Shown: positions 7,492-49,975 of the stretch, one piece after another
Layout: each line of letters begins with the position of its first letter
Position numbering within the stretch: position 1 is the stretch's first letter
Virus record (IMG/VR): IMGVR_UViG_3300029711_000004
Source of the DNA: a virus
Taxonomy: Duplodnaviria; Heunggongvirae; Uroviricota; Caudoviricetes
Length of the DNA stretch: 64,000 bases
Reading direction: 5' to 3' (one strand)
Translations under genes and position numbers: made by a program
The notes under the pieces: generated by a model
What the model was told of the DNA's origin: nothing
The model's input: only the letters and a program-made list of their open reading frames with translations
Databases searched by the model: none

Positions 7492-7872
7492 CTACTCCGC
7501 AGAACCATACAATCTACGTAACGTGTCGGCGACAGAAGATACAGATATCTCGCCAGTCGCAGCGCCTACAGTAAGGTCTGCCAGTTCAGGTGAATCAAAT
7601 ACCTGCACCCCGTTACGGCGTAGAAATAGCAGCGCACTGTTTAGCGCGGTACGCTTATTGGCATCATTGAATATATGCCCTCTCGCTGTAGCCACCAGGT
7701 AGGTGGCGGAGACTTCGAAAAGGTCGGTGATCTCTTCGTAGGCAACTCTGGCCTGAACTCTCCCGATAATGGCCTCTGCCCTACCCGGATCAGACATTCC
7801 CGGCAGGCCGCCGTAGCGGCTTATATTCGCATCATGAAGCGCAATAAGTTCTTCCGGTGATATATGCCTCAT
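7492..7872 (-). CDS. doc: Doc toxin (126 aa), Fic-family translation inhibitor
   Basis: [22 protein letters not shown]...; phd stop overlaps doc start. Confidence 0.93.
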
Positions 7873-8093
7873 TATCGGTTAACCAGTTCCTTGTTGGTGG
7901 AGTCCAGTGTGTCAAACAGGGATGCAAATTCAGCATCCAGCGCCGCTTTTTTGTAGGCTTCGAAAGTAGCCTTGCTGACAATTACTGCTGGTTCACGGCC
8001 TCTGCGGGTGATTTCAACCTCTTCCCCGGCTTCAACATTGTTGAGCACTTCAGAAAGGTTGCCACGCGCGGTACGGAAGTTAATGGATTGCAT
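7872..8093 (-). CDS. phd: Phd antitoxin (73 aa)
   Basis: [49 protein letters not shown]... Confidence 0.93.
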
Positions 8094-44760: not shown

Positions 44761-45576
44761 ATGAGCAAAAACTTTTTTCAATCCGGGGCATTTTTGGGGA
44801 ATGGACTGTCTCGTTTCGCTTTGAACTCTGATCCTGTGCAGTTGATGGAGTCTGCCCGAGCAAGCGCCGAACCGACAACAGATCCGGTTATTAATAATAA
44901 TCCGGAACCGGCGGCACAGACTAACGATAACGTTCCATCTGCCACGGCTCCTGAGCAAATCCTGGAAGGGAAAGACGGTAAAGAATGGACCGTCGAACAG
45001 GCGCACCAGATGATTCTGGAAGCTGCAAATCGAAGTGCTATGCAGAATGCGTTGAGTGATGCGGCCGACGCCGTTTTCGCCTGGGCTGATAGCGGTGATC
45101 TGACTTTCGACTCCCTTGATGGTTTCGTTCAGGCTATCGCTGGTATCTCTGATGACGACGACTCCGAAGTTACAGAAGAACAGGACGATGCCTATAACGA
45201 AGCATGGGCAAATGTTGCTGACTTCCTCGCAGCATGCGGTGTAGATGATGACCTGATCGAAGCACTGGCTGACGATGAAGACGACGACGCAGCTGCTGAT
45301 GTTGGTGCCTCTATCGCTGGTTTAGATAGCGACGACCGTGACGAACTGGAAGCGGCGTTTGTTGTTGCTGGCACTTCTGATGAAATGCTGACTGAAGCAT
45401 TTAAGAAGGTTGTTCGTAACGGTGAGATCAAACTCATCCGTAAACGCCTGCGTAAAAAACGTCTGACTGCGGCTCAAAAATCGGCGCTGAAAAAAGCGCG
45501 TCGTAAAGCCCAGACCGGCGCGGCAAAACTGGCCCGCAAAAAGTCAATGAAACTGCGCCGTAAGCGCCTCGGCTAA
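44761..45576 (+). CDS. Acidic structural/assembly protein (271 aa) with basic C-terminal tail
   Basis: ORF track; D/E-rich centre, K/R-rich end. Confidence 0.55.
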   Translation: MSKNFFQSGAFLGNGLSRFALNSDPVQLMESARASAEPTTDPVINNNPEPAAQTNDNVPSATAPEQILEGKDGKEWTVEQAHQMILEAANRSAMQNALSDAADAVFAWADSGDLTFDSLDGFVQAIAGISDDDDSEVTEEQDDAYNEAWANVADFLAACGVDDDLIEALADDEDDDAAADVGASIAGLDSDDRDELEAAFVVAGTSDEMLTEAFKKVVRNGEIKLIRKRLRKKRLTAAQKSALKKARRKAQTGAAKLARKKSMKLRRKRLG

Positions 45577-45611
45577 AGGAGGAGGCCGGAGAACTCCGGC
45601 CTTTAACTTGA

Positions 45612-46193
45612 ATGGCACCTATACCTTATGGGGTTTACAGCCAGGCTGACGGTGTATCGCCATATCTGAAAGTTACTTTAACGAACTCTCAGTACCAGGT
45701 TACCGGATATATCAGCCAGGGAGCGGCAATGAACATGGCCCAGAATTGGGAAGCGCCGTTTACCGGTATGTCCATGGGATCTGTTGCTGGTGCCTTCAGT
45801 GGTTTTGCGCAGGTTGGTACTGAAACAACGTCGGTTGCCCGTTGGAACAGCTTAATGGTTTGGGAAGGGGGAACACCGCCGACTTTCACGCTGCCAGTAA
45901 CTTTCATCGCTTTGTTTGACCCATTCACGGAGGTTTCAGGAGCTATCGCCGCATTGTCAGCGATGATTAGCCCGGAACTTAAAGATGCCAGTATTGGTGG
46001 TCGAATCCCGGAGCGTGTGACGCTAAACATTGGTCGCCGGATCAACATCATTGATGTCGCTATCCAGGACATAAGTTTCGATCTCGATGCGCCCAGGGAC
46101 AGCAATGGGCATTTCCTGAAAAACACCGTCAACCTCCAGTTGACCGGTTCTTCGATATATAACAGCTCCGATATTGTTCGGGCGTTCCAGTAA
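45612..46193 (+). CDS. Hypothetical virion protein (193 aa)
   Basis: ORF track. Confidence 0.55.
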   Translation: MAPIPYGVYSQADGVSPYLKVTLTNSQYQVTGYISQGAAMNMAQNWEAPFTGMSMGSVAGAFSGFAQVGTETTSVARWNSLMVWEGGTPPTFTLPVTFIALFDPFTEVSGAIAALSAMISPELKDASIGGRIPERVTLNIGRRINIIDVAIQDISFDLDAPRDSNGHFLKNTVNLQLTGSSIYNSSDIVRAFQ

Positions 46194-46204
46194 AAGGATT
46201 TTAT

Positions 46205-46714
46205 ATGGGGCACAATAATACTAAGGGAAACCGTAAATTTATTAAGGGCCGCTATACTGCCAACGCGGCCAAAGGCGAACGACTGGTATCTTCTGAATTC
46301 CAGCTCACTTTTGCAGGCCATGAAGATATCAGCGTACTGGTTCGCACGTCGCAAATTCCTGAAATGACCCGCGAGGATGTGGAGGACTATGGTCCGAATG
46401 GTGTGAAGTTCAACCAGCACGGTCCAATTCGAAACTCTGGGGAAATCCAGGTCCAGTGCGTGGAGACTATCGAAGGCGATATTCTTCAGTTCATTAAAGA
46501 TCGCATTGCGGCGAAGGACTATGTTGATATCACGATGGCTGCGACCCCTGAATCCAAATCTTCCGGGGTTAACGCTGTGACAAAAGCTGCTACAACAATT
46601 GAAATGTTGGACTGCAAAATCTACAGTGATGCAATCGACTTTAGTACCGAAGATGTGACTGCCGCTGTGCGCCCGTCACTTCGTATCGTCTACAACTGGA
46701 TTGATTGGGATTAA
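46205..46714 (+). CDS. Hypothetical virion protein (169 aa)
   Basis: ORF track; followed by strong terminator. Confidence 0.55.
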   Translation: MGHNNTKGNRKFIKGRYTANAAKGERLVSSEFQLTFAGHEDISVLVRTSQIPEMTREDVEDYGPNGVKFNQHGPIRNSGEIQVQCVETIEGDILQFIKDRIAAKDYVDITMAATPESKSSGVNAVTKAATTIEMLDCKIYSDAIDFSTEDVTAAVRPSLRIVYNWIDWD

Positions 46715-46733
46715 GAGTCATCCCTTGTATTTT

Positions 46734-46757
46734 AAAGCTCCTTCGGGAGCTTTTTTA
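46734..46757 (+). terminator. Rho-independent terminator
   Basis: AAAGCTCC-TTCG-GGAGCTTTTTTATTT. Confidence 0.85.
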
Positions 46758-46830
46758 TTTGGAGAGGAAAGGGTGCATTGAGGATACCTGACACACGAAG
46801 AGTGGCGGGGATCTCTCCCCGCCAGGTCTC

Positions 46831-46986
46831 TTACCTTTCAGATTCGTAGGCTGTGAAGACAGTGACCTCCGTCTGGCCGGTTCGGATTCGTACCTCGCAG
46901 AGGTCTTTCCTCGTTACCAGTGCCGTCACAATGACGGTTAAACAGATGACGATCAGAGCGATTAACATCGCTTTTTGCTGCTTCAT
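46831..46986 (-). CDS. Hok/Gef-family type I toxin (51 aa)
   Basis: MKQQKAMLIALIVICLTVIVTALVTRKDLCEVRIRTGQTEVTVFTAYESER, near-identical pattern to Gef/Hok; absent from ORF track. Confidence 0.85.
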   Translation of the reverse strand: MKQQKAMLIALIVICLTVIVTALVTRKDLCEVRIRTGQTEVTVFTAYESER

Positions 46987-47044
46987 AGCCTGCTTCTCCT
47001 TGACCTTTTGGTCGGTAAGAGGCTAATCTACGTATGCTAAGCAT
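46838..47044 (-). CDS. mok-like overlapping reading frame
   Basis: ORF-track 68-aa frame spans the hok-like gene in another frame and starts upstream. Confidence 0.35.
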   Translation of the reverse strand: MLSIRRLASYRPKGQGEAGYEAAKSDVNRSDRHLFNRHCDGTGNEERPLRGTNPNRPDGGHCLHSLRI

Positions 47045-47167
47045 AGATATGGCCTCAGATTAATGTTAAGCGTCTTGCAGGACGCGTAATGTTATCTGGG
47101 GCTTTCTTCTATCTGCTTTTCTGGTAATGCCTGAAGCAGATAGCTTCAAGCACCCGCAACGATTGTA

Positions 47168-47413
47168 TCAATGTCTGGCTTTTTTTCTATAGAAATCACC
47201 TGGAAGGGTGAATATCCACATCAGAAGAAATGTTGCAGCAAACATGATCCCTAATGGCCAGATTGCGCCAAAGAAAATCCATACTAAGATCTCCTCTGCT
47301 CGTTCTTTGCGGTCGATATCGACAAGCATTTTTCGGCTGATTATGTATACACAGAAGCCAATACAAACATATCCTGCAAAAGCGAACGCTAACTGTAAAA
47401 AATCAGATTGCAT
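47168..47413 (-). CDS. Small membrane protein (81 aa, two predicted TM helices)
   Basis: Start at MQSDFLQ with GAGGT RBS; operator-like ATTAGAGCAAT core 40 bp upstream. Confidence 0.5.
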   Translation of the reverse strand: MQSDFLQLAFAFAGYVCIGFCVYIISRKMLVDIDRKERAEEILVWIFFGAIWPLGIMFAATFLLMWIFTLPGDFYRKKARH

Positions 47414-47463
47414 CTCCGACCTCAAACTGAAAACACCAGGTGACTCCAGATTAGAGCAATCTA

Positions 47464-48309
47464 TCACCCTCTGAATCCTGCCGGTATACCCCATTGTTCG
47501 TTATCTTTATTTTTGGCTAAAACCGCATTAAGAGCTTCGTTTACCGTCATGCAATGCGGCAGATTATCGAAGTTTGATACCCCGCCAATATCAGGAGAAC
47601 GCTTGTTCTTCAGGTAAGCATATTTCCGCGCTGCCGCCTCTACTTTCTGCTTGAACTCATGTTTTTGAGCGCGTTTTTTGGATAACCGCAGATTGTCAGC
47701 CTTTGCTTTTGCCTCAGCGATCCATGAAGTCAATTTTTTGAGTCTGGTCGTTCCGGCACCGCCGGAAACTGATCTTTTTGTTTTTTTAACTTGTGACTTC
47801 TTATTCTTTATTGCCACGTCATCCTGACAGGGGGAGGGGGTATCATTTTGACATGGGGGTGTGGATAAAAAATTAAATAAAGCCAATGTCTTAGCGAGAA
47901 CAGCTTTAACCTTGGTTGCCGCTGAAGAGATCTTTAATTTGCTTTCAATCAGCGCATTTTTGGCTTGTTGTGCGAAGGCCAAAAAGGATGGTGTAAACCG
48001 GTACAGGTTAGCGCGACGTTCACGGTGATCGCCGATAACAATCTCTACAGACAGAATTCCTTTGTTTACAGCTTCACGGAATGCACGAACGACGGTTGAT
48101 TGGCTATAACCAGTTTCTGCCGCGATCAGGCGGTGAGGCTTGTGAATGAAGTATTCACTGGTTGTTGCCGCGAGATTTGCACATTGCGACAGGATATGCC
48201 CGGCGCTACGGGATAGACCGGAGTGTGTTACAAAGCAGGCCAATTCATAGCCAGAAAAAGTAAAATCGCTCATCGTTATACAGCTCAGGAAAGTGACTTT
48301 AGCCAGCAT
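47464..48309 (-). CDS. repL: RepL lytic replication initiator (281 aa)
   Basis: 281-aa ORF downstream of kilA. Confidence 0.8.
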   Translation of the reverse strand: MLAKVTFLSCITMSDFTFSGYELACFVTHSGLSRSAGHILSQCANLAATTSEYFIHKPHRLIAAETGYSQSTVVRAFREAVNKGILSVEIVIGDHRERRANLYRFTPSFLAFAQQAKNALIESKLKISSAATKVKAVLAKTLALFNFLSTPPCQNDTPSPCQDDVAIKNKKSQVKKTKRSVSGGAGTTRLKKLTSWIAEAKAKADNLRLSKKRAQKHEFKQKVEAAARKYAYLKNKRSPDIGGVSNFDNLPHCMTVNEALNAVLAKNKDNEQWGIPAGFRG

Positions 48310-48338
48310 TACAATGCTGGTGGTTCTTACTACGTCTG

Positions 48339-49139
48339 TTAGCGCGTTGCCGCGACAGGTACCAGCACACCAGCATCAAGCAATCGCTTCATCAGCCACT
48401 GCTGACCTTTGCCGGTTATACGAGTCGTGAAAGAAATCCTGCTTCCATTGCTTGTATCGATCACGGTTTCTTTAAGGGTGAAATACCCACGGGATATGTA
48501 TTCTTGTTTGGGGACGTTTCTGCGTTCACCGGTTGCGATCAGAATTCCGTTATCACGCAACCAGGTGAAGAGATAGTTTTGGCCCAGGCCGAGCACTTTG
48601 GCATAGTTGCCGATTAGAACCCCGCTGGCGGTAGCAACGCGTTCGGCGAATTCGACTTTAGGTGCATCCATCAGCATTTTTTGCTCCAGCCGTTGCTTTT
48701 GCTCTGCCAGGTCAGCAGCCAAACGGAGAGCTTCTGGGAGGCTCTTCGGAATAGCAGGTTGTAATCTTCCAGCTCGATAGTCGATAAATGTCTGGTTTAC
48801 CTTCAGCCGAAACGCGGGAGAAATCCAACCAGCGTACTCCACTGCGAGCAATTCATGGGCAAAAGTGCCGCCGCCACGGCCTTCGAACGAAACTATGCAA
48901 TTCTGCATAGTTTCTTTTTCAAGCTCTTCGATGAGCTGTTTGGCTGACAGCGTTCTTAGCCATTGAGCTGGCGCTTTATGGGCACCGAGTCCGCTCGCTC
49001 TGTGTAGAGCATTAAGGTTATAACGGCCAGCGCGGTCGGTCGTAATTTCAACACCACAAATAACAGGCAGGGTGGTTGAAGGATCGACATTTTGATGAAG
49101 GTTTGATATATTCATATCCGCATTGAATGTTTGTTGCAT
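48339..49139 (-). CDS. kilA: KilA (266 aa): KilA-N domain plus antirepressor-type C-terminal domain
   Basis: C-terminal region paralogous to Ant C-terminus; operator upstream. Confidence 0.8.
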   Translation of the reverse strand: MQQTFNADMNISNLHQNVDPSTTLPVICGVEITTDRAGRYNLNALHRASGLGAHKAPAQWLRTLSAKQLIEELEKETMQNCIVSFEGRGGGTFAHELLAVEYAGWISPAFRLKVNQTFIDYRAGRLQPAIPKSLPEALRLAADLAEQKQRLEQKMLMDAPKVEFAERVATASGVLIGNYAKVLGLGQNYLFTWLRDNGILIATGERRNVPKQEYISRGYFTLKETVIDTSNGSRISFTTRITGKGQQWLMKRLLDAGVLVPVAATR

Positions 49140-49208
49140 TTTTTCTCCAAATTTGCATCAACCTTCAATCACCAGCTCGAAATGGTGATTCTTTGCACTT
49201 AGAAAACG

Positions 49209-49225
49209 AAATTTATTAGAGCAAA
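49209..49225 (-). promoter_or_regulatory. C1 operator (Op53-type) controlling kilA-repL
   Basis: AAATTTATTAGAGCAAa, 16/17. Confidence 0.75.
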
Positions 49226-49259
49226 TTTTTCTAACTCGATCCAGATCGGGTTGGTCGAT

Positions 49260-49975
49260 CTGCTCAGAAACCTGCCAGTTTGCTGGCAGGTTTTTTTGTG
49301 CACAGAAAACCCCCAGCTAGGCTGGGGGTTCCGGAAAGCTTTCAGCTTTAAGCCAGTTATTAAAACCCCTTTTGATTTGTTAAAACACCTTGCGGTCTGG
49401 CAACTGCAAGTGTCAAACAAGAAATCAAAAGGGGGTCCCAATGGGGAACGAAAAGAGCTTAGCGCACACCCGATGGAACTGTAAATATCACATAGTATTT
49501 GCGCCAAAATACCGAAGACAGGTGTTCTACAGAGAGAAGCGTAGAGCAATAGGCAGTATTTTGAGAAAGCTGTGTGAGTGGAAAAGTGTACGGATTCTGG
49601 AAGCTGAATGCTGTGCAGATCATATCCATATGCTTGTGGAGATCCCGCCCAAAATGAGCGTATCCGGCTTTATGGGATATCTGAAAGGGAAAAGCAGTCT
49701 GATGCTTTACGAGCAGTTTGGTGATTTGAAATTCAAATACAGGAACAGGGAGTTCTGGTGCAGAGGGTACTACGTCGATACGGTGGGTAAGAACACGGCG
49801 AAGATACAGGATTACATAAAGCACCAGCTTGAAGAGGATAAAATGGGAGAGCAGTTATCGATTCCCTATCCGGGCAGCCCGTTTACGGGCCGTAAGTAAC
49901 GAAGTTGGATGCAAATGTCAGATCGTGTGCGCCTGTTAGGGCGCGGCTGGTAAGAGAGCCTTATAGGCGCATTTG
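49260..49975 (+). mobile_element. IS200 insertion sequence (IS200/IS605 family); ends approximate within about 30 bp
   Basis: IS200-type TnpA ORF preceded by terminator hairpin and a second hairpin; subterminal hairpins at right end. Confidence 0.8.
49441..49899 (+). CDS. tnpA: IS200 transposase TnpA (HUH Y1), 152 aa
   Basis: MGNEKSLAHTRWNCKYHIVFAPKYRRQVFY...HIHMLVEIPPKMS... Confidence 0.92.
   Translation: MGNEKSLAHTRWNCKYHIVFAPKYRRQVFYREKRRAIGSILRKLCEWKSVRILEAECCADHIHMLVEIPPKMSVSGFMGYLKGKSSLMLYEQFGDLKFKYRNREFWCRGYYVDTVGKNTAKIQDYIKHQLEEDKMGEQLSIPYPGSPFTGRK

Follow-up and report, generated by a model that had tools for sequence, protein, structure and literature searches.

The 64,000-nt stretch of DNA analysed here (the window) is a P1-like (Punavirus) phage-plasmid. 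With a probability of roughly 0.9, its variable slot between bplB and repL holds, as cargo, an intact type I toxin-antitoxin module of the hok/mok/sok kind. The resemblance is far above what chance would give. The locus extends over about 46771-47189, somewhat beyond the coordinates given in a preliminary description of this DNA, and its features are collected in Table 1. The cassette is real but already known, as set out below.

Table 1. Features of the hok/mok/sok locus and of the neighbouring small ORF, in window coordinates
Feature	Position	Strand	Details and basis
Small ORF between repL and hok	47168-47413 (81 aa from internal ATG); longer frame to 47494 (108 aa)	-	PHROG 3772
Candidate hok promoter	47162..47189	-	-35 TAGAAA (47189-47184), 16-nt spacer, TG-extended -10 TACAAT (47167-47162); consensus scan
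Predicted full-length hok mRNA, ~385 nt, tac to fbi	46771..47155	-	Homology, folding
tac, translational activator element, GGGUGCUUGA	47146..47155	-	mRNA 5' end; folds
5' stem-loop of hok mRNA	47109..47143	-	Between tac and ucb; mRNA pairs 13-47, MFE folds
ucb, upstream complementary box (anti-SD), AAGCCCC	47098..47104	-	mRNA nt 52-58
mok Shine-Dalgarno (SD), GAGG	47053..47056	-	8 nt 5' of mok ATG; from sequence, aligns with R1
mok frame, 68 codons	46838..47044	-	Out-of-frame overlap with hok; ORF list
dcb, downstream complementary box, core GCCUC	47019..47023	-	Complementary to mok SD GAGGC; from sequence
hok SD, GGAG	46999-46996	-	Sequence
hok, 51-aa membrane toxin peptide	46831..46986 (stop codon included)	-	Pfam HOK_GEF, PHROG 251
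GC-rich 3' hairpin, GGCGGGGAGAGAUCCCCGCC	46803..46824	-	Folds; aligns with R1 hairpin GGCGGGC..GCCCGCC
fbi, fold-back inhibitory element, UCAAUGCACCC	46771..46781	-	Pairs with tac in full-length MFE
Candidate Sok promoter	47000..47029	+	-35 TTGACC (47000-05), 18-nt spacer, -10 TAATCT (47024-29); from sequence
Candidate Sok RNA, ~75 nt	47036..47110	+	Fold and mapped sokW annotation

Judged by its sequence, the product of the 51-aa minus-strand ORF is a member of the Hok/Gef family, as the preliminary description had recognized, and the translation given there was exact. The peptide matches Pfam HOK_GEF (PF01848) over profile positions 1-42 of 42 with 78.7 bits (E value 2.4e-22, cut-off 22) and PHROG 251, 'MokW-like host killing', with 110.7 bits. 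NCBIfam Hok models gave matches below their strict cut-offs only. The peptide is 92% identical both to HokW and to the Hok of Rac-type prophages, and 43% identical to R1 Hok. Both Cys residues and the TRK..LCE..R..G motif found in these relatives are kept.

A frame that starts upstream of hok and overlaps it had been taken to match the mok arrangement, and this holds. Relative to the hok ATG, that of mok (47044) is 58 nt upstream with a frame offset of 1, out of frame as in R1, where mok has 70 codons and the same start geometry. The R1 mok SD corresponding to that in Table 1 is G105-G108 (PMC9841398). A mok-equivalent frame was found in most of the 47 hok loci aligned below, and the window mok ends 7 nt short of the end of hok, as it does in the Rac-type locus. 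Two mok arrangements, which differ by a one-nucleotide indel, occur in these loci. In the 933W-type loci (L009-L020) mok starts 57 nt upstream of hok and in frame with it, giving an N-terminally extended Hok, whereas in the window, the Kluyvera and the R1-type loci mok begins 58 nt before hok in a different frame (alignment A3).

The candidate hok promoter predicts a transcription start at ~47155, which is both position 1 of the Rfam model match (see below) and the point at which the alignment with R1 mRNA starts, and its hexamers line up with their counterparts at the Rac and 933W hok loci (TAGAAT -10). The predicted mRNA aligns end to end with R1 hok mRNA. Its minimum free energy (MFE) is -151.4 kcal/mol for a 387-nt version (z = -8.6 relative to shuffled sequences) and -150.2 kcal/mol for the 385-nt version, and the 5' and 3' ends pair together in the full-length MFE fold. 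The element definitions used for tac, ucb, dcb and fbi are those of PMC9841398. Alignment with hok/sok of R1 and a search for a Sok promoter and fold-back elements had both been suggested in the preliminary description. The alignment shows that tac, ucb, the mok SD and ATG, dcb, the hok SD and the 3' hairpin are conserved, and the search yielded the candidate Sok promoter and a tac/fbi helix of 10 bp with one bulge (MFE of the 385-nt RNA).

In the predicted folds, the partner of tac changes with the length of the RNA. Within the first 40 nt, tac forms a metastable hairpin with the sequence just downstream of it, within the first 60-80 nt it forms a stem with ucb around the 5' stem-loop, and in the full-length RNA it pairs with fbi, while ucb pairs with the mok SD region. 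R1 hok mRNA, folded by the same procedure, gave the same series of structures, and the window series is compatible with the published R1 model of metastable, closed and open conformations (PMC9841398). The MFE structure of a 3'-truncated mRNA (46800-47155) keeps the mok SD paired and shows no 'open' conformation, and the same is true of R1 with the same program. The GC-rich 3' hairpin is the equivalent of the terminal stem-loop of the processed (truncated) R1 hok mRNA, with which it aligns. The dcb core lies within a nearly invariant block, TAGCCTCTTAC (alignments A2 and A3), and its complementarity suggests that it would pair with the mok SD. Next to it in the DNA is the Sok -10 box, and in R1 a Sok-promoter mutation falls in dcb (PMC9841398).

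A hairpin at 47108-47145 had been proposed to belong either to the mRNA fold-back or to the Sok region. The hairpin is real and is the 5' stem-loop of the hok mRNA (read from 47143 to 47109), but it is not Sok, which extends to its 3' edge and overlaps it by only ~2-3 nt. The window also matches the Rfam family RF01794 ('sok') at 46981-47155 with 109 bits (gathering score 59). As this match is to the hok-sense strand, with its end at the hok AUG, it marks the mRNA leader and Sok target rather than the Sok strand. Despite its name, this Rfam family in practice models the hok mRNA leader and not the antisense RNA. A weak plus-strand match to RF01794 (18 bits) was set aside, as were sub-threshold matches to CRISPR-DR46, ceN48 and sbrA.

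Two nucleotides in the 5' part of the hok mRNA are private to the window. One is a G to A change at 47145 (hok mRNA position 11) that is absent from four P1-like copies (MH422554 and L006-L008). The A forms an A-U pair in the 5' metastable hairpin and a mismatch with fbi, and tac/fbi has 10 pairs rather than the 12 of those copies. The second private change is in the loop of the 5' stem-loop. At the other end of the locus, 12 nt past fbi and on the other strand, is the terminator hairpin of bplB (AAAGCTCCTTCGGGAGCTTT plus a T-run, 46734-46759). It may double as the hok terminator, though the minus-strand T-run is short.

The regulatory helices were examined across the hok family using 79 hok loci from GTDB genomes, and 47 distinct mRNA units, R1 included, were aligned. 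When the window helices were imposed on the 47 loci, 85.5% of cells were paired, compared with 38-48% when the partners were slid by 1-3 columns. As the imposed structure came from one of these very sequences, the percentage paired is inflated, but the compensatory changes are not affected. Changes on both sides were found for 19 of the 53 pairs. At the pair between tac position 4 and fbi, 28 loci have UA, 16 have CG, three have UG and none is unpaired. The pair closing the ucb/SD helix also covaries (AU 23, GC 18). The 5' stem-loop (helix 2) has 13 pairs, six of them changed on both sides, with 86.5% of cells paired, and in helices 6 and 7 of the 3' hairpin five pairs are changed on both sides. 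A direct duplex search of about 70 hok loci recovered a tac/fbi helix in nearly every one, with GGGUGC/GCACCC in some covarying with GGGCGC/GCGCCC in others.

Some of the loci collected are hok genes of the Escherichia/plasmid type on short or MAG contigs (L009, L019, L034, L073, L074 and L075). These contigs are labelled Veillonella parvula, Acinetobacter idrijaensis, Xanthomonas pisi, Ferruginibacter, Streptomyces morookaense and Oscillibacter, and the Hok peptides of L019 and L034 are 100% identical to that of the window. They are probably assembly contamination.

The candidate Sok promoter was placed by alignment with R1 and 933W. It had been missed by the automatic scan because its -10 box matches the consensus at only three of six positions. 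Its hexamers share their alignment columns with TTGCGC and TATCCT of R1, which we take to be the R1 Sok promoter. The candidate Sok RNA folds into a single-stranded 5' tail, a long hairpin (47053-47101) and a U-rich tail (-30.4 kcal/mol, z = -4.6). It is complementary to nt 46-120 of the hok mRNA, a segment that covers ucb, the mok SD and the mok AUG. The annotated sokW of phage 933W, mapped onto the window, falls at about 47037-47105. At the level of the sequence, then, the locus has a putative cis-encoded Sok that covers the mok initiation region and has a promoter and a terminator of its own.

The genes on either side of the cassette are those of P1. The flanks at 45100-46756 (pmgG, bplB) and 47450-49297 (repL, kilA) are 96-98% identical to P1 (NC_005856). 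Between them, 693 bp of the window (46757-47449), made up of a small ORF and the hok/sok unit, replace the 1826-bp pmgF-rlfB-rlfA segment of P1. The preliminary description knew of no hok locus in P1, and reference P1 indeed has none at this place. On the left, the junction directly follows the bplB terminator's T-run. On the right, it is inside the C1 operator Orlf (47444-47460, minus strand), where ATTGCTCTAAT is followed by TATAAC in P1 and by CTGGAG in the window; the operator remnant consists of its first 11 of 17 bp (ATTGCTCTAAT), and unrelated sequence follows. This slot has been described as variable region 5 (rlfA-rlfB-pmgF) of the eight recognised in P1-like plasmids (PMC9603915). 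It is occupied by pmgF-rlfB-rlfA in P1 and P7 and by other ORFs or an IS in SJ46, RCS47 and 673R5.

The small ORF stops directly against the hok -10 box, and its longer, 108-aa frame shares sequence with the end of repL. Neither Pfam nor NCBIfam gave a match. Its PHROG 3772 homologues are confined to P1-like elements (SJ46 gp017 is 44% identical), and two hydrophobic stretches, seen by eye, suggest a small membrane protein. The 108-aa ORF was considered as a possible part of the hok/sok system but is treated as separate cargo; SJ46 has a version of it, and the bplB-repL slot of SJ46 contains no annotated hok feature.

Matches of 95-99% identity to the complete arrangement, from junction through cassette to junction (46650-47560), came from 262 PLSDB plasmids and from 235 of the 5,426 complete E. 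coli genomes. An ORF interrupted in related genomes would have counted against the preliminary description; in these plasmids and genomes the cassette is conserved at ~99% identity and the hok CDS is intact. The same stretch also occurs in six phage records, in one of which it is annotated 'MokW', and the PGAP name for the cassette ORF is hokD. The novelty implied in the preliminary description is thus not borne out, as the same cassette is annotated as hokD or MokW in hundreds of P1-like plasmids, and Venturini et al. (2019) recorded '2 orfs including antibacterial toxin' in place of rlfA-rlfB-pmgF (PMC6906374). Our literature search for a paper devoted to hok/sok in P1-like phage-plasmids returned only mentions at the level of table entries, together with database annotation.

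It is very unlikely that the cassette is a decaying or silenced remnant, carried along without the ability to kill in the manner of the hok loci on the E. coli K-12 chromosome. Inactivation is reported for many chromosomal hok loci, which was counted in favour of this reading. The private change at 47145, which weakens tac/fbi, points the same way, as does pSvP1, which has a copy of IS186B between bplB and repL with the target duplication GGATCTCTCC (PMC6906374). However, the window cassette contains no IS, its hok CDS is unbroken and carries an annotation in hundreds of near-identical copies, and its fold follows the covariation pattern of the family. The predicted promoters, tac, ucb, mok, dcb, hok, the 3' hairpin, fbi and Sok are all intact, and because of this the decayed-locus reading was rejected for the window.

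The decamer GGATCTCTCC, which is the 10-bp IS186B duplication of pSvP1, corresponds to 46809-46818 (plus strand) in the window, inside the hok 3' hairpin. The IS186B of pSvP1 has probably split the hok 3' UTR, which is reminiscent of the IS elements inserted next to hok loci on the K-12 chromosome.

An intact module would be expected to work as follows. By homology with R1, a stable hok mRNA of ~385 nt would be made from the promoter at 47162-47189. In the nascent transcript the 5' tac would be held in the metastable hairpin. In the full-length mRNA tac would pair with the 3' fbi and ucb would hide the mok ribosome site, so that neither ribosomes nor Sok would be able to act on it. Slow trimming of the 3' end back to the GC-rich hairpin (46803-46824) would free tac to pair with ucb, exposing the mok SD and the Sok target. 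As long as the element is present, the short-lived Sok (47036-47110, plus strand) would bind the exposed target and the duplex would be destroyed. If the element is lost, Sok would decay first, mok would be translated and hok with it by coupling, and the 51-aa Hok peptide would collapse the inner membrane. We infer the transcription, processing, toxicity and biological role of the window hok/sok by analogy, as Hok killing, Sok neutralisation, and 3' processing and RNase III cleavage have been described for its relatives R1 (PMC9841398) and hokW-sokW (PMC8621323).

With post-segregational killing as its most likely role, the module would act together with phd-doc to stabilise the low-copy plasmid prophage. 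The phd and doc genes are present in the window at 7495-8093 (minus strand) and are 99-100% identical to those of P1. This makes hok/sok a second addiction-type module, and the earlier suggestion of a second addiction or abortive-infection module is a fair reading. Several points were counted against the explanation of the locus as such a module. A P1-like plasmid has phd-doc and partition functions in any case. The nearest relative to have been tested, hokW-sokW, aids phage release and not maintenance. Finally, the Sok -10 box agrees with only 3/6 consensus positions and the private change at 47145 shortens tac/fbi.

The second of these points is the basis of another reading of the same module, namely that it helps lysis and release at prophage induction, as hokW-sokW does in Sp5. 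Loss of Sok or over-transcription of hok would let Hok damage the inner membrane, leading to earlier lysis and phage release. We regard this as somewhat unlikely. The relative concerned is close (87.6% nucleotide and 92% peptide identity) and raises Sp5 release about two-fold after mitomycin C (PMC8621323), and the window cassette lies directly downstream of the C1-controlled lytic operon kilA-repL and in the same orientation. However, the Sp5 effect is modest, P1 has a holin/endolysin system of its own, and in a read-through transcript with a 5' extension tac would no longer lie at the 5' end.

With the cassette co-oriented downstream of the C1-repressed kilA-repL operon and Orlf cut to 11 of 17 bp, its position may not be neutral. 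A more specific proposal is that Hok output is wired to the lytic switch, making the module a timed lysis aid instead of, or besides, an addiction module. On induction, read-through transcripts with a 5' extension could carry hok and escape the tac/fbi lock or, alternatively, transcription across the Sok promoter could silence Sok. We consider this decidedly unlikely.

A further reading of the same module is a main role in abortive infection or exclusion of other phages, in which an incoming lytic phage would stop host transcription, Sok would be depleted and Hok released. Prophages and phage-plasmids often hold defence cargo in variable slots, of which this is one of eight (PMC9603915), and high-copy R1 hok/sok, according to the figures cited in PMC8621323, lowered the plating efficiency of T4 by 42% and its plaque size by ~85%. 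That effect is weak and was obtained at high copy number, whereas the window element is low-copy, and a census of Hok (bioRxiv 10.1101/2025.08.07.668861) reported no enrichment of hok beside defence systems, though it did find enrichment in prophages and large plasmids. We judge this role unlikely, and post-segregational killing remains our preferred role for the module.

With hok/sok and phd-doc, one P1-like element has two unrelated stabilising or killing modules, one of type I and one of type II, which is useful to know for anyone who wants to cure such plasmids or employ them as vectors. Cargo in the bplB-repL slot is exchanged, and here the slot holds a module shared with lambdoid prophages. 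The locus bears on the question of whether hok/sok in phages serves maintenance, defence or lysis help. It is not a new kind of system, and the main value of the analysis is correct annotation.

Among known systems, the best match outside P1-like elements is the hok of Rac-type prophages (the hokD/relF lineage, e.g. MN652886), at 91.6% nucleotide identity over window positions 46771-47158; hok/sok of 933W (annotated mokW/hokW/sokW) is 87.6% identical over these positions. The Rac-type locus has other flanking genes, and its homology to the window ends at the edges of the promoter-to-fbi unit. To our knowledge, hokD of K-12 lacks the upstream regulatory part. The hokW-sokW locus of the lambdoid Stx2 phage Sp5/933W of E. 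coli O157:H7, which has been found experimentally to be a functional type I toxin-antitoxin system (PMC8621323), shares the leader, Sok region, 3' hairpin and fbi with the window, and both are phage-borne. They differ in the start and frame of mok described above (57 nt upstream and in frame for 933W, 58 nt and out of frame for the window) and in the host element, which is an integrated lambdoid prophage for hokW-sokW and a plasmid prophage for the window. Hok/sok of R1 (parB) and the window have the same order of elements with similar spacing, namely tac, the 5' stem-loop, ucb, the Sok target hairpin, the mok SD and ATG, dcb adjoining the Sok -10 box, the hok SD, the 3' hairpin and fbi. The R1 5' stem-loop is ~20 nt longer than that of the window and the R1 Sok target hairpin is shorter, and R1 is a conjugative plasmid and not a phage. 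The phd-doc system of P1 presumably serves the same purpose as hok/sok, the killing or arrest of cells that lose the plasmid prophage. However, it lies in a different part of the genome and its mechanism is unrelated, phd-doc being a type II system with a protein antitoxin and a Fic-family kinase toxin, whereas hok/sok consists of an antisense RNA and a membrane peptide.
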